Notes: generated from the sequence alone by a model not told the origin. A DNA stretch of 6,249 nt from Escherichia coli (GCF_003334785.1 NZ_QOWV01000039.1); one strand, 5' to 3'; positions 1 to 6,249 are shown, numbered from the stretch's first letter. Made by a program: numbers and translations.

Positions 1-49
1 GAATGGCCCTCCAACCGTGTTGACGAACTCCTGCCATGGAACGTAGTAC

Positions 50-379
50 TCACCAATAAATAAGCGTCAATACGGTGCTCCGTTGACGCTTACAGAGAAT
101 GCGTTTGACCGCCTCGCTATATACTTCCGAGCGTTCTCTTTTCCCAACAGAAATCACGAAAACGACAACTTTCTCGTCTATAACCTGGTATACAAGGCGA
201 TAGCCTGAAGACCGGAGCTTAATCTTGTAACAATCAGGCATACCACGGAGCTTGTTTGCTTCAATCCGGGGTGACTCAAGTACTTCAACCAGCTTCTTTT
301 TCAACTGTTCACGTACCGTCGAGCCCAGCTTTCGCCATTCCTTTAGTGCCCGCTCGTCAAAATCCAGAAAATACGCCAT
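50..379 (-). CDS. relE: RelE mRNA-interferase toxin (RelE/ParE family), 109 aa; first 95 aa match E. coli RelE as recalled, followed by a 14-aa C-terminal extension
   Basis: Translation MAYFLDFDERALKEWRKLGSTV...VYSEAVKRIL is recognisably RelE; start codon shares one base with the relB stop (TGATG); the gene sits directly downstream of relB on the same strand. Confidence 0.9.
   Translation of the reverse strand: MAYFLDFDERALKEWRKLGSTVREQLKKKLVEVLESPRIEANKLRGMPDCYKIKLRSSGYRLVYQVIDEKVVVFVISVGKRERSEVYSEAVKRILCKRQRSTVLTLIYW
53..91 (-). terminator. Stem-loop (9-bp stem 62-70/83-91, inner CGG/CCG pairs) followed on the minus strand by UAUUUAUU; probable terminator or mRNA fold at the relE 3' end
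   Basis: Inverted repeat AAGCGTCAA...TTGACGCTT read directly; U-rich tract follows on the minus strand. The extended relE ORF reads through it. Confidence 0.4.
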
Positions 380-618
380 CAGAGTTCATCCAGCGTCACA
401 CGTACTGGCTTAGGATTACGAAGCCGTTCTTTCACTATCTCCACAAGTTCAGCATCTTCATCACTCAGGAGTGTCTGTTTGAACGGCAAGCGTTCATTGT
501 CAGCGATATACTCGAGCATGAGACGAAGCGCTTCAGAAGGAGTTACACCCATTTTTTCAAGCGCGGCGTAAGAACGCGCTTTAAGTTCATCGTCAATACG
601 CAGGTTAATGCTACCCAT
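379..618 (-). CDS. relB: RelB antitoxin, 79 aa
   Basis: Translation MGSINLRIDDELKARSYA...PKPVRVTLDEL matches RelB as recalled; GAGGTG Shine-Dalgarno about 6 nt upstream of the ATG; overlaps the relE start. Confidence 0.92.
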   Translation of the reverse strand: MGSINLRIDDELKARSYAALEKMGVTPSEALRLMLEYIADNERLPFKQTLLSDEDAELVEIVKERLRNPKPVRVTLDEL

Positions 619-700
619 GTCTTACACCTCTTGTAATTACAAATGTCATTACAAGTATCGCACTACAACATGCTTAGGGCAAGTCACGAAGGAAGTCAGA
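619..700 (-). promoter_or_regulatory. relBE promoter region with relO-type operator (perfect 12-bp palindrome TTGTAATTACAA at 631-642, plus partial repeat to 655)
   Basis: Palindrome read directly, immediately upstream of relB; consistent with RelB/RelE autoregulation at an operator overlapping the promoter. Exact -35/-10 positions not resolved by eye. Confidence 0.6.
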
Positions 701-948
701 AAGTAGTCGTAAGAACGGTGATCACTGTCCGCTTTGTGCCAGGAGCAGCCATTGCTAAGTCCATCCTGTATTGTGCAGGTCAGCTCGTTTTTAAAGAGTC
801 CGGCCATCATCTTACTGGTACAGACACCATATACTTTGTGACGGTCAGGCTACATATGCACAACTCAACTTATTCATCTATTTTTTGCTTTAGCATGTCA
901 GTGTTGCTTTCTCGTCGGCGGGTGAGCGGTGACCTGACCTGTCGATAA
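643..948 (+). CDS. ydfV: Hypothetical protein, 101 aa, in the position and of the size of E. coli ydfV (divergent from relB)
   Basis: ORF of the expected length between relB and flxA; no recognisable Shine-Dalgarno; the start lies inside the relO operator. Protein sequence not independently recognised. Confidence 0.35.
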   Translation: MSLQVSHYNMLRASHEGSQKVVVRTVITVRFVPGAAIAKSILYCAGQLVFKESGHHLTGTDTIYFVTVRLHMHNSTYSSIFCFSMSVLLSRRRVSGDLTCR

Positions 949-1100
949 AGGAACGTAACACGTTTTATGCAACACCCGCATGCGGCAGAAAATTATTGCC
1001 GAACGTTTACCCCTGTCAACAAGCTTTACTTTCTGAGGCGCGCCAGCCCGCGAGGAAAACAATCTGAACATCAAACAATTAATGACACAAGAAATACGAT

Positions 1101-1127
1101 TAAAGATTTTTTTGTGCATGCCGATAG
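1101..1127 (+). promoter_or_regulatory. sigma28 (FliA)-type promoter: TAAAGATT, 11-bp spacer, GCCGATAG
   Basis: Matches the sigma28 consensus TAAAGTTT-N11-GCCGATAA at 7/8 and 7/8 with the exact spacer, about 24 bp upstream of the flxA start; flxA is a known FliA-dependent gene. Confidence 0.6.
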
Positions 1128-1150
1128 TGCTTTTTTAAAAGGAGAAATCT

Positions 1151-1483
1151 ATGTCTGTCACAATTCAGGGAAATACCTCAACCGTTATTTCAAACAACTC
1201 CGCCCCGGAAGGAACATCAGAAATAGCCAAAATCACAAGACAAATTCAGGTGCTGACTGAAAAGCTTGGGAAAATCTCATCGGAAGAGGGGATGACGACA
1301 CAGCAGAAAAAAGAAATGGCTGCATTGGTACAGAAGCAAATTGAAAGCCTCTGGGCTCAACTGGAGCAGTTGTTAAGGCAGCAGGCAGAGAAAAAGAATG
1401 AAGACGCGACAGTTCAGCCTGATAAAAAAGAAGAGAAAAAAGACGATACAAATACCGCTGGCACCATTGATATTTACGTCTAA
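1151..1483 (+). CDS. flxA: FlxA-like protein (FliA-regulated), 110 aa
   Basis: AAGGAG Shine-Dalgarno about 6 nt upstream of the ATG; translation MSVTIQGNTSTVISNNSAPEG... with a Q/E/K-rich coiled-coil-like centre; gene order relB-ydfV-flxA as in the Qin prophage. Confidence 0.85.
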   Translation: MSVTIQGNTSTVISNNSAPEGTSEIAKITRQIQVLTEKLGKISSEEGMTTQQKKEMAALVQKQIESLWAQLEQLLRQQAEKKNEDATVQPDKKEEKKDDTNTAGTIDIYV

Positions 1484-1497
1484 GTGACAGCCGTATT

Positions 1498-1522
1498 GTG
1501 GCCCTCATCGGGCCACTTTTCG
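1498..1522 (+). terminator. Rho-independent terminator downstream of flxA
   Basis: GTGGCCC-tcatc-GGGCCAC hairpin followed by TTTTC, 15 bp after the flxA stop. Confidence 0.6.
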
Positions 1523-1570
1523 CCATCAGCCTTTTCTTTAAAGACATATTATCTTTGTATCATTTCTGAT

Positions 1571-3419
1571 AGTTAACATTACAAGATATAAGTAATGGAC
1601 GCACTCCCAATTAGTCTATTTAAATCGCCACGAGTTTAACTGACAACCCATGATCAATTATGAATTGCAACTATTTCTGTAGTCACTTTTGTGGGGACAG
1701 TCCACAAAACTGCCAACTTCCGCTTCTTGCTCTTAGCGGACATTAGCATAGGCTATTTACCATAACGCCTCATTACGCGCACCGCCCAGACTGACTCAGC
1801 GCGTTTCTGGCATATCCCCGGTAAAACAAGTAACAAACCACCCGAAAATGAACACCAGAAACGCGACTTAAGAATCTACCCTATGAATGGATATGCACTC
1901 AACCGAATCGATCTTGGTTTCAATCTTTTTTATCGGGATCAGGCTTCTTTTTAGGTAACTTCGGGGGCTTAACTTGCTGATGACTTTGCGTTCGGCGCGT
2001 AAGCCAGGGATGGTCAGCTTTAGGTTTAACATAGTATTTTGAGCGTAAATCAATACGGGCATTATCCACTCGTTCATGGACACTCTTTTCATCATCCAGT
2101 GGTATAGGCTCCGGGCCATCAACATACTTTTCCCAGCCCAGCGCTTTCCCGTCATACAGAACGTTAATTTCACCGTCAAAGTTCTCGCATACAGTAACAA
2201 CCGAATGCCTAAGTCGATATCCCCGGCCCTCACTGCGTACCTGAAACGCACTGCTTTTGTACTGGAAAGTGAGATTTTTAGACAGAACGCGCTTCGCCTG
2301 TAGGCTGAAGATATAACCCAGTTCCTCTTCAGAATGGTGCACATCAAGATGAGCATTATCAGTAGTACGAGGCGACGTAGCGAACCGGTTGTTATAGGCT
2401 TCAATAAAGGTCGGCAACCATGCATTTGCTGTTTCAATATCACTGATATTCTGAAGCCGCATTTCTTTGACCAGCCTGTCCTGTAGTGTCTGATTGGCGC
2501 GCTCTACCCGCCCTTTTGCCTGCGGGCTGTTGGCATGGATTGGCTCGATGCCCAGTGTCTTTATCGCACGAGTGAACTGGGTCAGCTCACCTTCCCGCTC
2601 TGGGTTATTTACCCTGAATATACTGTGTCTATCAGAGTAGAGAGCGAGCGGTACGCCATGATCATTAAGGTAACCCCGGAGGGTTTCCATGTAAGCCCGG
2701 GTTGTTTCAGCAGGCACAAAACGCAACGCCATCAACGCACTGGTGGCATCATCAATGAAAACGATCAGTGTACATCTGGGGCCTCGATTTTCAAACCAGT
2801 CATGAGGTGAGCCATCAATCTGGATCAGTTCACCGTAAGATGGTCGTCGCATGCGGCGTTGATATATACGGGCAATTTTACGACGGCGTTCACGCCATAA
2901 CCCCTCTTCTATCATCCACTTTCTGAGAGTTTCAACGGATAAAGATAAACCGTGTATCTCGCGCAATTTTTCGCACGCAAACGTAGGTCCAAAATCAGCG
3001 TAACGGCCTTTGAGGAGTGAAATTACTGTTGCTCTGAATTCAGTAGAAAAGGAATTATTAGGACGCTTTCCACGTCGGTGGGAAACCAGACCAGAAGGCC
3101 CTTCATTTCTATACCGTTGCACCAGACGTTTAACCTGCCGAATAGAAATGCCAATGCGTGCCGCAGCTTGTTCCTGAATAATCTGAAGTCGGTGGAGTTC
3201 CTTATGACTCATCGTAACAGTCTCTTTGATCATGAAAAATCCCCCAGAGAATTGTCTGGGGACATTTTAGAATGGTTCAAAGGGGACATTACAGCTTGGT
3301 GTTAACAATAGCCTGCTTCTCCGTGCCTTTCGGCACGTAAGAGGCTAACCTACATGTGTCTAGCATGAAATTGGCCTCAGATTAATGTTAAGCGTCTTGC
3401 AGGACGCGTAATGTTAACT
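1571..3419 (-). mobile_element. ISNCY-family (IS1202-group-like) insertion sequence; boundaries tentative
   Basis: Boundaries are placed at a perfect 12-bp inverted repeat (AGTTAACATTAC at 1571-1582; GTAATGTTAACT at 3408-3419) bracketing the transposase gene. No target-site duplication was found and a 12-mer match could arise by chance in 6 kb. Confidence 0.35.
1920..3233 (-). CDS. ISNCY-family DDE transposase (IS481/IS1202-like), 437 aa
   Basis: N-terminal helix-turn-helix (AARIGISIRQVKRLVQRY); integrase-type catalytic core with D in IQIDGS, D in FIDDATS and E in SPQAKGRVERANQTL; lysine/proline-rich C-terminal tail. An alternative ATG at 3212 (MSHKEL...) is in frame. Confidence 0.9.
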   Translation of the reverse strand: MIKETVTMSHKELHRLQIIQEQAAARIGISIRQVKRLVQRYRNEGPSGLVSHRRGKRPNNSFSTEFRATVISLLKGRYADFGPTFACEKLREIHGLSLSVETLRKWMIEEGLWRERRRKIARIYQRRMRRPSYGELIQIDGSPHDWFENRGPRCTLIVFIDDATSALMALRFVPAETTRAYMETLRGYLNDHGVPLALYSDRHSIFRVNNPEREGELTQFTRAIKTLGIEPIHANSPQAKGRVERANQTLQDRLVKEMRLQNISDIETANAWLPTFIEAYNNRFATSPRTTDNAHLDVHHSEEELGYIFSLQAKRVLSKNLTFQYKSSAFQVRSEGRGYRLRHSVVTVCENFDGEINVLYDGKALGWEKYVDGPEPIPLDDEKSVHERVDNARIDLRSKYYVKPKADHPWLTRRTQSHQQVKPPKLPKKKPDPDKKD

Positions 3420-3567
3420 GGGGCTTTTCTCTATCTGCCGTTGGTGTCCATGCCCGAGGCAGATAGCCTCAAGCACCCGCAGTCATTCTACTTAACTAAG
3501 ATTTCCCCGCAAACCGTTTTTGTCCAGCACAGTAAATATCCAACTAAACCAATGGAGTTCGCTGTAT

Positions 3568-3747
3568 TTACCGCCAGTATTCAATGCACATGACCGCCAT
3601 GAACACCCCTAAAAAAAGGGCATTTATATATCCAAATATTAATATCAAAACATCAACTTTTTCCATATACCTTGCTGTGAAGATGATGGGCATACATGAT
3701 GCGAACAACCAGAACGCAACAAACAAAAACTGCAATGCGTTTTTCAT
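3568..3747 (-). CDS. Small hydrophobic membrane protein, 59 aa, two predicted transmembrane helices
   Basis: Consensus AGGAGG Shine-Dalgarno 5 nt upstream of the ATG at 3747; translation MKNALQFLFVAFWLFASCMPIIFTARYMEKVDVLILIFGYINALFLGVFMAVMCIEYWR. The ORF-track version (start 3786) has no ribosome-binding site. Confidence 0.45.
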   Translation of the reverse strand: MKNALQFLFVAFWLFASCMPIIFTARYMEKVDVLILIFGYINALFLGVFMAVMCIEYWR

Positions 3748-4001
3748 TATTCCTCCTACAATCAATGTGCAATTACATTTAAACACACCTCAATTTGGCC
3801 GGACATATAAATATCTAAACCAGAAAAAATCACTTACATAGCGTTACAAACTCTTTAGTCTAAAGGTTCATCGTAAAACATTCCCCATACTTATCAGTCC
3901 GTTCCGCGCCAGGTAGCTCATTGCCTTATCTGGCAACCTGTAATCAGGTTTCCGCTTTTTCAGTTGGCTGGTCGTTTAACCGACATAGTTAATCCATTAA
4001 T

Positions 4002-4289
4002 CTAGTTGCCGGATGTTGGTGGATTTTCGCGTTTTAGTTGTTCATAAAAGTGCACAGCTTTAACCAGTTCTTCTGATGTAACTGGGACTGGTGAGGCAGT
4101 GAATAAGGCCTGAATTTGATAGTTCGGCCTGTCGTTACAATCCTCTTTTTTCGGTACATATTTCCAGTCACCAGACCACTACTTCCCCTGAAAGTCCGTA
4201 ACGCCTTTTTTCACGTAGCGATATCGCCATGCCACTGGTTTTGCTTGCCCCGCCGTTTCATGCCCTTCCTGATAATTAATCTCGCTCAT
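4002..4289 (-). pseudogene. Small prophage-like ORF (about 95 codons) interrupted by an in-frame amber codon at 4179-4181
   Basis: Reads MSEINYQEGHETAGQAKPVAWRYRYVKKGVTDFQGK-TAG-WSGDWKYVPKKEDCNDRPNYQIQ...; its ATG overlaps the TGA of the upstream ORF (ATGA). Confidence 0.25.
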
Positions 4290-4477
4290 TCATCGCCCCA
4301 CTCATCACAATATGCTTCGACCGGAGTTTTTCCCGCTTCATAGTCATCACGCTAGGATTCGACATCAGCAGCACTTCCACCGCGTAACTCACCATAGTCC
4401 ATTAATAGTTCATCCCGCTCTTCAAAACTGATGTTATATTTAGCTGAACAAAAATCAGCCACTTTGTTCTTCCTCAT
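4286..4477 (-). pseudogene. Small acidic ORF (about 63 codons) interrupted by an in-frame amber codon at 4352-4354
   Basis: Reads MRKNKVADFCSAKYNISFEERDELLMDYGELRGGSAADVES-TAG-RDDYEAGKTPVEAYCDEWGDE; an internal GTG at codon 6 is preceded by GAGGAAG; stop overlaps the next start. Confidence 0.2.
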
Positions 4478-4899
4478 CGTCTTTTATTTCGTGGTATGAG
4501 TAATTGCAGTAGTTAAAGAAAATTTCTTATGCTCCGTCATGAATTTCCTCAGGTGTTGCGTCATCGTCCACTTCGAATACATCCTCAAAATCTCCACCAG
4601 CTATTCCCGTTTCAATAATAATTTTGAACTTTCGCATTTCACTACCGCCCTTTCGGGCGGCCTCCTGATGTTCTGAGGGTGCAGAAATCCATCCGGTTAA
4701 GGATTAAATTTTATTTACAGAACTGAATTTAATTATTCAGATATACGTATCTGTAGCCTTACGAATCTACTCACTGGATGCCTCTTTCATAAAAATAATC
4801 CAGTGGGTTTTATCGTTTTTTCCCTGTTCGTTGACAGATAACAGGTTTTCTGTCTGTCAGTGCCAGAATCTGGCTTACCGGTATTTGCGTTTCATTCCA

Positions 4900-5256
4900 T
4901 TAAAAAATCAGAACGCCGTGCGGCCTCAACACCCGAAAGGCTTCTTTAAATCTCTGTCGCGAATCATCACGCCAGGCATCTTTATTCAGCCGTCCATATT
5001 TCTTTCCCATCCAGGCGTTATCACCAACACTCTCAAGATGCGGAGGGTCTAATACAACCATCGAAAAAGATGCGTCTGCAAATGATAATGCACGAAAATC
5101 TGCGATAATGTCAGGGCTGATAATCAAGCGTCTCCCATTGCGTAATGTGTATCCTTCTTTTCTGATATCGCTGAATATCGCCCGTTCGTCAGACTTATCG
5201 AACCAGAACATGCGGCTGCCACAGCACATATCAAGAATGGTTGCCGGTGCACTCAC
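4900..5256 (-). CDS. Putative SAM-dependent methyltransferase (motif I ILDMCCGS; motif IV VVLDPPH), 118 aa; probably cut short by a premature TAA
   Basis: GTG start overlapping the stop of the upstream ORF; motif I and a DPPH motif about 55 residues apart, as in small N6-adenine/N4-cytosine-type methyltransferases; after the TAA at 4900-4902 the same frame stays open 29 codons (WNETQIPVSQILALTDRKPVICQRTGKKR). Confidence 0.6.
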   Translation of the reverse strand: MSAPATILDMCCGSRMFWFDKSDERAIFSDIRKEGYTLRNGRRLIISPDIIADFRALSFADASFSMVVLDPPHLESVGDNAWMGKKYGRLNKDAWRDDSRQRFKEAFRVLRPHGVLIF

Positions 5257-5519
5257 TGCGCCACGTCCTGAAAATTACCCTGATAGAAAGCCAGTATGCG
5301 CTGCATAACTTCGCTCTTCCGGCACTCGCGACAGATTATGTTTAGGCGACTGTCGTAGCGACGTATTTCTCCGTCAGGTGATGACCAGATAAGGTCCGGA
5401 TCAACCACAGCAGGTTTCTTCACCTTTGCCCTCGAGAGTTTTTTGCGGGCGTTTTGCCAGTCCTTACGCGCCTGTTCAGAGGGGAATAACCCGTATCCGG
5501 AGCTTAAGTTGCACGCCAT
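5253..5519 (-). CDS. Hypothetical basic protein, 88 aa (contains CRECRK), coupled to the methyltransferase gene
   Basis: Stop overlaps the methyltransferase GTG start (GTGA); no clear Shine-Dalgarno; its 5' end overlaps the longest version of the opposite-strand ORF. Confidence 0.3.
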   Translation of the reverse strand: MACNLSSGYGLFPSEQARKDWQNARKKLSRAKVKKPAVVDPDLIWSSPDGEIRRYDSRLNIICRECRKSEVMQRILAFYQGNFQDVAQ

Positions 5520-5892
5520 TGGGTGGGTTAAGCATAAATGTATTCCTGGTGCTAAATGGCCCGAAATTCAGGCAGAGATGCGCATCTGGAAAAAACGTCG
5601 CGAAGGTGAACGCAAGGAAACCGGAAAATACACGTCTGTTGTTGATCTCGCCCGCGCCAGAGCCAATCAACAGTACACTGAAAATTCAACAGGAAAAATC
5701 AGCCCGGTCATTGCTGCCATTCATCGCGAATACAAGCAGACATGGAAAACACTGGATGACGAACTGGCCTACGCTCTCTGGCCTAGTGATGTGGATGCCG
5801 GAAACATTGACGGCAGCATCCATCGCTGGGCAAAAAAAGAAGTTATCGACAACGACCGCGAAGACTGGAAGCGTGAGGTGTACTGGCAATAG
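5443..5892 (+). CDS. Hypothetical protein of unknown function (149 aa from TTG 5443; alternative starts TTG 5509 with a GGAG site, or ATG 5578)
   Basis: Long open frame with mixed charged composition (…KISPVIAAIHREYKQTWKTLDDELAYALWPSDVDAGNIDGSIHRWAKKEVIDNDREDWKREVYWQ); the 3' end abuts or lies within the IS3-family terminus. Confidence 0.45.
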   Translation: MRAFCQSLRACSEGNNPYPELKLHAIGWVKHKCIPGAKWPEIQAEMRIWKKRREGERKETGKYTSVVDLARARANQQYTENSTGKISPVIAAIHREYKQTWKTLDDELAYALWPSDVDAGNIDGSIHRWAKKEVIDNDREDWKREVYWQ

Positions 5893-6249
5893 CGGACACT
5901 ACCATTTGTTCTTTTTTTAAGCAGCCATCTGATGATATTTTTCCCTGAAGGCTGCCGGGGAGATATTCCCCAGACGAGAGTGACGACGCTGACGATTGTA
6001 GAAAATCTCAATGTATTCCCGTATTACTGAGATGGCTTCATCCCGGTTATTAAAACGATAGTGGCTCAGGCTCTCATTTTTCAGCGTTCCCCAGAAGCTT
6101 TCCATCGGAGCGTTGTCGTAACAGTTACCTTTACGCGACATTGATGTTTTCAGACCAAACTGCTCCTGTATGACCCGGTAATCGTATGCGCAGTACTGTG
6201 AACCTCGATCGGAGTGGTGGATTAGCACGGCAGGTGGGCGCTGGCTCCT
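5874..6249 (-). mobile_element. IS3-family insertion sequence, partial (continues beyond window); terminus near 5874-5900
   Basis: Transposase OrfB C-terminus ends at 5917; the adjacent GGCAATAGCGGACAC (5885-5899) resembles the IS3 terminal repeat as recalled (GCAATAGTGGACAC). Exact terminal base uncertain by about 10 bp. Confidence 0.6.
5917..6249 (-). CDS. IS3-family transposase OrfB (integrase core), C-terminal part; 5' end lies outside the window
   Basis: Translation ...VLIHHSDRGSQYCAYDYR...MSRKGNCYDNAPMESFWGTLKNE...YNRQRRHSRLGNISPAAF carries the IS3-family DDE-region signatures (HSDRGSQY; KGNCYDNAPMESF); the frame stays open to the window edge. Confidence 0.9.
   Translation of the reverse strand, partial: RSQRPPAVLIHHSDRGSQYCAYDYRVIQEQFGLKTSMSRKGNCYDNAPMESFWGTLKNESLSHYRFNNRDEAISVIREYIEIFYNRQRRHSRLGNISPAAFREKYHQMAA

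Follow-up and report, generated by a model that had tools for sequence, protein, structure and literature searches.

In this study, we analyzed a stretch of 6,249 nucleotides from Escherichia coli (GCF_003334785.1, NZ_QOWV01000039.1), in the following called the window, which belongs to a cryptic lambdoid prophage of the Qin type in E. coli/Shigella and represents its nin/early-right region. It contains the transposase gene (tnp) and the left end of a transposon together with flxA, ydfV and the type II toxin-antitoxin genes relB and relE, and directly next to the left end the regulatory leader of a second toxin-antitoxin system, hok/sok, whose toxin gene hokD is found in relatives on the other side of the transposon. 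Decayed phage genes and the end of an insertion sequence (IS) follow to the right. All features are listed in Table 1; loci used for comparison are numbered with an L.

Window bases 93–6249 are 100% identical to many E. coli chromosomes, and at least 80% of the window is present in 448 of 5426 complete genomes. In E. coli O157:H16 str. 98-3133 (L001), the locus lies inside a Qin-type lambdoid prophage adjoining rspB with the gene order hokD, relE, relB, ydfV, flxA, 'ydfW', ISNCY transposase pseudogene, several pseudogenes, methyltransferase, DUF977 fragment, IS600, exonuclease fragment, xis, and int.

An IS1202-family, cargo-carrying unit transposon of ~3.3 kb, targeting the translation-initiation regions of hok genes, very probably reshaped this prophage region. 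The insertion of the element is the main event shaping the locus, and the remaining changes are routine, independent decay. An initial annotation of the window had described two unrelated ISs bracketing a segment of decayed prophage genes; as written, this is an ordinary and partly mis-delimited account of prophage decay.

Table 1. Features of the 6,249-nt window, sorted by position (aa, amino acids; ORF, open reading frame)
Feature	Position	Strand	Remarks
IS66-like (ISEc47-family) end	1–92	+	100% match to multicopy ISEc47-family copies; closest E. coli relatives match from base 93
relE, passenger gene	92–379	-	Identical DNA annotated in L001; stop destroyed by the IS66 insertion
relB, passenger gene	379–618	-	Identical DNA annotated in L001
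ydfV ORF	643–948	+	Spans a module junction; hairpin motif at 727–752 within
flxA, passenger gene	1151–1483	+	Also in plasmid copies L080 and L082
Internal degenerate right-end-like hairpin ATGTCCGCT..AGCGGAA	1715–1748	-	Homology to the stand-alone IS (Enterobacter sp. Ag1) ends here
IS1202-family (ISEsa1-like) DDE transposase gene	1920–3233	-	437 aa, continuous ORF
Transposon left end	3241–3307	-	Terminal inverted repeat TGTTAACACCAAGCTGTAATGTCCCC (3307–3282), second ATGTCCCC repeat (3258–3276), terminator-like hairpin (3262–3241)
Left copy of the 15-bp target-site duplication GGAGAAGCAGGCTAT	3308–3322	-	hokD ribosome-binding site and AT of the ATG
Orphaned hok/sok leader	3308–3490	-	-10 TAGAAT (3490–3485), hok mRNA 5′ leader (3478–3308), 25-codon mok remnant (3366–3289), Sok promoter region
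59-aa two-helix membrane ORF	3568–3747	-	Intact, strong ribosome-binding site
Pseudogene of 85-aa nin-region ORF	4037–4289	-	Frameshift near 4206–4210; tblastn with vB_EcoS-640R1 protein
Pseudogene of 58-aa nin-region ORF	4289–4462	-	Internal stop
DUF7167 pseudogene	4458–4637	-	Internal stop
Phage orphan DNA methyltransferase	4774–5256	-	ORF of 118 aa (4900–5256), premature stop; homology continues to 4774
LygF/DUF977 (Ren-like) C-terminal fragment	5256–5504	-	Residues 58–140
Deletion junction	5493–5502		10-bp microhomology
Exonuclease VIII (RecE-like) internal fragment	5493–5874	+	phrog_2082 positions 156–290 of 823
IS600 (IS3 family) end, inserted in exoVIII	5874–6249	-	Other copies match from 5873/5874; exonuclease homology stops at 5874

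Anatomy of the transposon and the split hokD locus

The ISNCY-type transposase initially annotated on the left of the window was confirmed. Its intact ORF scores 456 bits with the NCBIfam ISNCY transposase model (NF033594; cut-off 250; profile positions 7–365 of 368), covers a PHROG transposase family end to end and contains the Pfam domains HTH_28/HTH_32 and rve_3. A DDE transposase of 394–507 aa with N-terminal helix-turn-helix (HTH) domains, as in the IS1202 family (ISNCY in ISfinder), is therefore present. The ends agree as well: inverted repeats of ~22–29 bp are typical of the family, and those of the element have the tips TGT/ACA, with 19 of 26 positions identical between TGTTAACACCAAGCTGTAATGTCCCC and TGTCAACGCAAAGCAGAAGTGTCACC in an alignment made by eye, and both ends bear internal, ATGTCCCC-like subterminal repeats. 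Imperfect repeats with TGT/ACA tips and subterminal repeats define the IS1202 family (PMC10132070). The right end was read in L001, K-12 and plasmids.

Compared to the 446-aa transposase of the plasmid copies, the protein of the window has only 437 aa due to a 27-bp in-frame deletion, which removed the 9 residues 22–30 inside the first HTH (HTH_28, residues 14–66). The transposase copy of the window is probably inactive and the copy immobile. Just before the tnp ATG, inside the left end, a hairpin with a T run at 3241–3262 resembles a terminator and would shield tnp from read-through from the hok promoter. The annotation pipeline PGAP divides the continuous 437-aa ORF into ydfW and a 'pseudogene missing its C-terminus'; this artefact goes back to the annotation of K-12.

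The left repeat of the element abuts unrelated DNA in 34 distinct flanks. In the window it ends at 3307 and not at 3420, where the initial annotation had put the limit of the left element; positions 3308–3478 are the leader of a hok/sok system and belong neither to an IS nor to the segment of decayed genes. The Rfam model RF01794 matches at 3307–3478 on the minus strand in full length (model positions 1–157) with 104 bits at a gathering score of 59. The hok mRNA leader with its conserved fold and the Sok-complementary region is present; it is strongly structured (z = -4.8), and its 191 nt are 98.4% identical to the DNA directly upstream of the intact hokD of E. coli B and 93–95% identical to that in O157:H7 and MLI114. 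No hok ORF of ~50 codons overlapped by mok follows behind this leader. Its ATG position reads ATTGTTAAC, which is the transposon end, and the mok frame stops after 25 codons. The toxin-related element retained here is a leader that has lost its toxin gene. A promoter scan of 3200–4000 gave nothing above shuffled sequences, and no other RNA family was found above chance in the window.

Comparison with intact and interrupted loci shows what happened at hokD. An intact hokD site reads GGCAAGGAGAAGCAGGCTATGAAG, while the window reads GGCACGGAGAAGCAGGCTAT followed by TGTTAACACCAAGCTGTAATGTCCCC. L001, which has the arrangement of the window without the IS66-like end, contains GGAGAAGCAGGCTAT once before TGTTAACACC... 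and again 3274 bp further, after ...GCGTTGACA. This second copy, preceded by ...GGTGACACTTCTGCTTTGCGTTGACA, stands directly before the G of the hokD ATG. From window position 2104 leftwards, K-12 MG1655 is 100% identical through relE and onwards across the right repeat and the duplication into hokD; the orphan leader, the left repeat and the greater part of tnp are missing from it. Because of this identity, the K-12 gene 'ydfW/intK' (L142, which is K-12, 5328–5477; window 1920–2069) can be recognized as the last 49 codons of the transposase. Pedersen and Gerdes are said to have described the K-12 hokD (relF) locus in 1999 as inactivated by a 'major genetic rearrangement'.

According to these comparisons, the element entered the prophage hokD locus at the point where regulatory leader and coding sequence meet, duplicating 15 bp. 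The hok promoter, the mok start and the Sok antisense gene were thereby stranded at 3308–3490 with no toxin behind them. hokD would have kept a copy of its ribosome-binding site and become the third gene of a relB-relE-hokD operon outside the control by Sok and mok, in which the duplicated ribosome-binding site would let hok be translated from the relBE transcript. Folding of the relE-hokD junction for a masking of the hok ribosome-binding site by the right end gave no significant structure (z = -1.3). Co-transcription of relBEF in K-12 has been reported (Gotfredsen and Gerdes 1998, as cited in PMC5120126). We infer that this transposon insertion is how the relB-relE-hokD operon of E. coli arose.

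The unit consists of the left inverted repeat, tnp, flxA, ydfV, relB, relE and the right inverted repeat, begins with TGTTAAC..., ends with ...GCGTTGACA and has a length of 3274–3301 bp in relatives. A single pair of inverted repeats around tnp and passenger genes, with the duplication outside, was found at more than one site, namely in L001, L080, L081, L082, L023, L089 and L122. A boundary at 1571, as drawn in the initial annotation, does not exist: the match to a stand-alone IS copy stops at ~1715, and the mobile unit runs on leftwards through flxA, ydfV, relB and relE.

One could also assume that only a 1.6-kb IS, ISEsa1 as delimited in ISfinder, is mobile and that flxA-ydfV-relBE came later between this IS and hokD, or that the IS landed beside a pre-existing relBE-hokD. 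A stand-alone copy of 1620 bp in Enterobacter sp. Ag1 indeed matches the left part of the plasmid element with 99.75% identity, an end-like hairpin exists at the corresponding point of the window (1715–1748, with the hairpin motif occurring again at 727–752), and the cargo between tnp and relBE differs among copies. However, a duplication surrounds none of the 1.6-kb units examined, whereas the right end lies beyond relB/relE wherever both ends and a duplication were found. In addition, this distal end pairs better with the left repeat (19/26 by eye, with the same spacing) than the internal end, in which the tip TTGAC of the stand-alone copy is missing in the window. We consider such a short mobile unit the least probable of the alternatives discussed here, and take the mobile element to be the unit that includes relBE.

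The right part of the unit is itself a conserved module. relBE and the right repeat are 99.7% identical in a Citrobacter plasmid transposon carrying other cargo, and in L014, L023 and L081 the homology to this module begins at reference positions 2838–2845 (window ~745–755), inside ydfV. Since the conserved module starts within ydfV in elements with other cargo, from which ydfV is absent, ydfV is probably a chimeric and no genuine ORF. Related elements differ in their organization. L085 (1306–13876) is a related transposon at a hok-type site, in which cargo of more than 10 kb separates tnp from relBE; genes for chromate efflux, an MFS transporter and a nickel/cobalt efflux transporter are part of it. 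In L014 (5286–7094; Leclercia adecarboxylata), the module of relBE and right end is joined straight to an internal point of tnp, which may be due to a second element inserted into the first or to an inversion.

In the window, the IS66-like end has parted relE from the transposon right end and hokD. It is located at the relE stop codon and changed TGA to TGT, so that the relE ORF runs to base 50 (50–379) and RelE is extended by 14 residues. This junction was found in no complete E. coli genome of the collection.

Insertions at other hok loci and the target site

The module of relBE and the right repeat is present in 879 plasmids, its junction with IncF hok in 454 and that with IncI hok in 3. 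In a Salmonella IncI-gamma/K1 plasmid, an element of 3301 bp separates a pnd-type leader, which gives 128 bits with Rfam and ends at the left repeat, from its toxin gene (MMPQRTF...), with TGGAGGGGCTATGAT on both sides. A Citrobacter IncFIB plasmid carries an element with different cargo, flanked by GGAGAAGAAGGCCATG, and the copy of an Enterobacter IncFIB/FII plasmid has the duplication GGAGAAGAAGGCCA. In L080 and L081, a leader recognized by Rfam directly adjoins the left end. The duplication has 14–16 bp at eight sites.

The elements themselves hardly differ. Two 3301-bp plasmid copies show 3 mismatches to each other, and the Qin copy differs from a plasmid copy by 4 mismatches (~0.1%) and the 27-bp deletion over ~3300 bp. 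The reconstructed empty sites of the three hok types are only 54–59% identical, with 76% between the two IncF sites. Because near-identical elements have different local duplications at dissimilar hok sites, the Qin, IncI and IncF copies are separate and recent transpositions that hit different hok genes at an identical nucleotide position.

An integration of relBE from plasmids into the Qin hokD has been stated earlier, with the mechanism unnamed in the citing text (Ramisetty and Santhosh 2016, as cited in PMC6379469). This would also be compatible with a relBE block that reached hok only once by illegitimate or homologous recombination, the link to hok then resulting from inheritance and selection, e.g. 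through loss of insertions at other places, and not from a choice by the transposase. Copies of the element do recombine, as can be seen from the hybrid locus L070, whose left flank is a pnd-type leader and whose right flank is hokD, and hok-bearing replicons are over-sampled. A single event nevertheless appears highly improbable, as at all three dissimilar hok types the local hok sequence is present as a 14–16-bp direct repeat on both flanks of nearly unchanged elements. Furthermore, the position is constant within 1 nt, the orientation is constant, and GGCAA precedes the element at this distance in non-hok sites as well. The tandem copies found at a single hok site, in which a right end is followed by 15 bp and a left end (L108, L119), also speak against it.

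For a survey of the left flanks, viral contigs were scanned by the right end and metagenomes by the left end, and genome loci found by the transposase were added. This yielded 100 left flanks, 34 of them distinct. Of these, ~21 are start regions of hok genes of several types, and 3 are copies arranged in tandem at such regions. At the hok sites, the duplication begins directly after GGCAA, the 3′ side of a conserved GCCGnAAGGCAA hairpin. In four non-hok flanks (L101, L110, L122/L131, L135/L138), GGCAA ends 15–16 bp before the element, corresponding to 4 of 14 (binomial P = 7e-8), or to 3 of 13 (P = 7e-6) if the similar sites L101 and L135 are counted once. L122 is a transposase-less derivative of 2180 bp (SDR, hydrolase, relB) with a perfect 15-bp duplication at such a non-hok GGCAA site, and L023 has a duplication with 13 of 15 positions matching at a site without GGCAA. 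The order is always GGCAA, duplication, left repeat, tnp, and then relBE pointing into hok. Judged from these flanks, the putative GGCAA target rule is well supported, but not absolute.

The transposase would recognize GGCAA, perhaps together with its surroundings, and make staggered cuts, the first immediately 3′ of the motif and the second 14–16 bp further on. Since the motif in hok is a conserved hairpin just 5′ of the hok ribosome-binding site, the hok loci of prophages, IncF and IncI plasmids would be preferred. Through the choice of hok loci, the element would be directed to plasmids and prophages, and the relBE pair it carries would replace the maintenance function disrupted by the insertion. 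We hold the anatomy with high confidence, active targeting of hok sites by the transposase with moderate confidence and any functional advantage from the element with low confidence. On balance, we lean towards a relBE-carrying transposon that homes to hok start codons via the GGCAA hairpin, possibly the -35 box of Sok, thereby reaches plasmids and prophages almost exclusively, uncouples hok from its RNA antitoxin and puts it under relBE transcription; one toxin-antitoxin system would thus spread by capturing another, and the K-12 relBEF operon would have originated in this way.

In plasmid R1, AGGCAA is the complement of the Sok -35 hexamer. Most Qin copies have GGCAC in place of GGCAA (window 3327–3323, within 3323–3328), i.e. 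the base 5′ of the duplication is C instead of A. The proposed target motif is therefore gone in these copies, and by analogy with R1 the -35 box of Sok would be weakened (TTGCCT to GTGCCT). The change could be decay after the uncoupling or a protection against a second insertion.

Several observations weigh against targeting of hok by a unit of this kind. Of the 34 distinct flanks, about 10 belong to neither the hok sites nor the tandem copies, and GGCAA is missing from several of them (L007, L009–L011, L023, L059). The repeat at L059 has only 6 bp, and around the 1.6-kb stand-alone copies (L007) and the diverged L009–L011 no duplication was found even with 3 mismatches allowed. ISfinder defines ISEsa1 as an element of 1609 bp without target-site duplication (PMC10132070). 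A shorter unit may therefore also move, or the stand-alone copies may be rearranged. Over-sampling of successful plasmids and prophages inflates the share of hok sites, and the right ends of the hok-flanked L095, L087, L119 and L126 were not found in their available DNA. The window itself contains the left end only; because the IS66 element cuts it at base 92, its right end and second duplicate are deduced from relatives. Finally, its putative Sok promoter and -35 box are assigned by analogy with R1.

Decayed prophage genes to the right of the leader

The broken phage ORFs that the initial annotation had noticed between the two elements were found again using tblastn with intact proteins of phage vB_EcoS-640R1 and strain MLI114. 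The right third of the segment (5493–5874) is no nin gene, but an internal fragment of exonuclease VIII. Compared to phage PhiR42_1 (PV340562), 4.6 kb comprising the 5′ end of lygF, O, cII, cro, cI, the dic region and the 5′ end of exoVIII are missing. This 4.6-kb deletion fused lygF to exoVIII. The IS3-family element on the right is real and is the end of the multicopy IS600. In the closest complete genomes, this IS600 copy is itself interrupted by IS30 (L001 18728–19879), and the window ends before this nested IS.

The methyltransferase ORF covers phrog_954 positions 52–165 of 229 and positions 3–122 of 169 of the PADLOC methyltransferase profile, with the stop at ~70% of the family profile; a restriction partner is absent. 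PGAP calls the 118-aa 'class I SAM-dependent methyltransferase' (4900–5256) intact, but it really is the nonsense-ended N-terminal two thirds of the protein. A defence island or restriction-modification system can be rejected, since a complete protein set is not present and PADLOC finds only this truncated orphan methyltransferase.

The small membrane gene pointed out in the initial annotation is intact with a strong ribosome-binding site. It is located in AT-rich DNA (34% G+C), directly upstream of the hok promoter in some prophages only, and is not annotated by PGAP; in some phage records an annotation is found on the opposite strand instead. The ORF gave no match with NCBIfam, PHROG or PADLOC, and its database relatives have no precomputed Pfam domain. 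These relatives are near-identical and restricted to E. coli/Shigella, and several are frameshifted. Of the 35 copies seen, 32 are identical, and the only two substitutions are both non-synonymous. The case for a function of this ORF is weak.

The locus might also be explained by two simple ISs inserted independently on both sides of an accessory hotspot, in which the surviving membrane protein and methyltransferase are kept for a benefit to the host. Both transposase genes are real, the region varies between strains, the small ORF is mostly identical among its copies, and the methyltransferase ORF passes as intact in PGAP. The left element, however, is bounded at 3307 and belongs to the 3.3-kb unit with its own duplication, and the duplications refute two simple ISs as a full account. 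The methyltransferase is cut off by a stop, PADLOC gives no match to a defence system, and the small ORF shows the restricted occurrence, frameshifts and substitutions described above. We regard this explanation as unlikely, and likewise none of the retained genes looks as if it gave the defence, toxin or methylation benefit that had been suggested for them. The main event at the locus remains the insertion of the unit transposon into hokD.

Two ISs of unrelated families do flank the segment, but they do not act jointly and the bracketing is coincidental. A composite transposon formed from both was rejected: they belong to different families (IS1202 and IS3/IS600) without common ends, IS600 interrupts exoVIII, and it is absent at the site in L004 and L032. 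The assignment to a strain-variable cryptic-prophage region holds, as in a comparison across related genomes the segment was uniform and IS-free in only some relatives; a segment intact and uniform in most of them, which would have spoken against the initial annotation, was thus not seen.

L032 is phage PhiR42_1 from ECOR13, whose deposited genome of 48.7 kb contains the whole transposon at 3386–6830. It also has the orphan leader and the same pseudogenes, and cI, cro, O, exoVIII, xis and int are still present. As the whole transposon occurs together with these phage genes, the element can travel on a possibly inducible phage.

Relation to known elements and significance

Within the IS1202 family, the element resembles the ISAjo2 group described by Harmer and Hall 2023 (PMC10132070). 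In both, the DDE transposase is large and has its HTH domains at the N-terminus, the tips are TGT...ACA, and an additional internal repeat of the transposase site is present; both insert in fixed orientation at a short, fixed distance from a recognized motif and prefer a site typical for plasmids, and some members of the group also carry passenger genes (tIS). They differ in the target, which is GGCAA at the hok translation-initiation region here and the XerC side of dif/pdif there, in the duplication (14–16 bp vs 5 bp), and in the cargo, to which a type II toxin-antitoxin pair, situated at the right end, belongs here. Moreover, the transposase described here belongs to the ISEsa1 branch, for which neither a target-site duplication nor a target has been reported; in the family as a whole, duplications of 3–5 or 16–28 bp, or none, are known (PMC10132070), so that the 14–16 bp seen here lie at the margin of the long class.

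ISEsa1 itself is listed in ISfinder with 1609 bp, inverted repeats of 15/22 and a 439-aa transposase ('no TSD'). The transposases of 437–446 aa, the PGAP label 'IS1202-like element ISEsa1 family transposase' on the plasmid copies and the separate occurrence of the 1620-bp left part agree with this entry. The duplication-bearing unit, in contrast, has 2.2 to >12 kb and ends beyond relBE. Most likely, the ISfinder ISEsa1, which was compared by its description only, is the left part of the unit.

With intact hok/sok loci, the window shares the full Rfam architecture of the leader and the hok promoter, and in relatives relE is followed by hokD. However, 3.3 kb of transposon separate the leader from the toxin gene, the window copy lacks the hok ORF, and K-12 lacks the leader. 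Tn7-like transposons, which insert at attTn7 downstream of glmS, likewise use a fixed distance and orientation to a conserved sequence following a 'safe harbour' logic and have TGT/ACA ends; unlike them, the present element has no TnsC/D/E-type accessory genes, and the regulation of the target gene is disrupted and not spared. As in ISEcp1-type mobilization, the proximal right end is degenerate and a distal end bounds the cargo, but here the distal end is a good, recurrent inverted repeat common to all copies and not a new surrogate in each event. In the searchable literature, which included a survey of hok loci from 2026 and the paper on the IS1202 family, with subscription journals outside this coverage, no description was found of hok targeting, of the vehicle and its ends, of the duplication or the orphan leader, or of the repeated occurrence at other hok loci.

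The decayed genes between the two ISs are ordinary. The transposon, in contrast, offers a mechanism for a 25-year-old oddity, namely the position of hokD (relF) behind relBE without sok or mok, and explains the K-12 gene 'ydfW/intK' as a transposase remnant. It also suggests that ISEsa1 is mis-delimited; ISEsa1 would then represent only the transposase end of a larger, cargo-carrying transposon, which makes a 15-bp duplication and has a defined target, and the IS1202 family would gain a second site-specific branch. With 879 plasmids of Klebsiella, Enterobacter, E. coli, Citrobacter and Salmonella, the element is common. It alters the hok/sok maintenance system of plasmids and can hold >10 kb of cargo, e.g. 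metal efflux genes, and therefore matters for plasmid stability and annotation.

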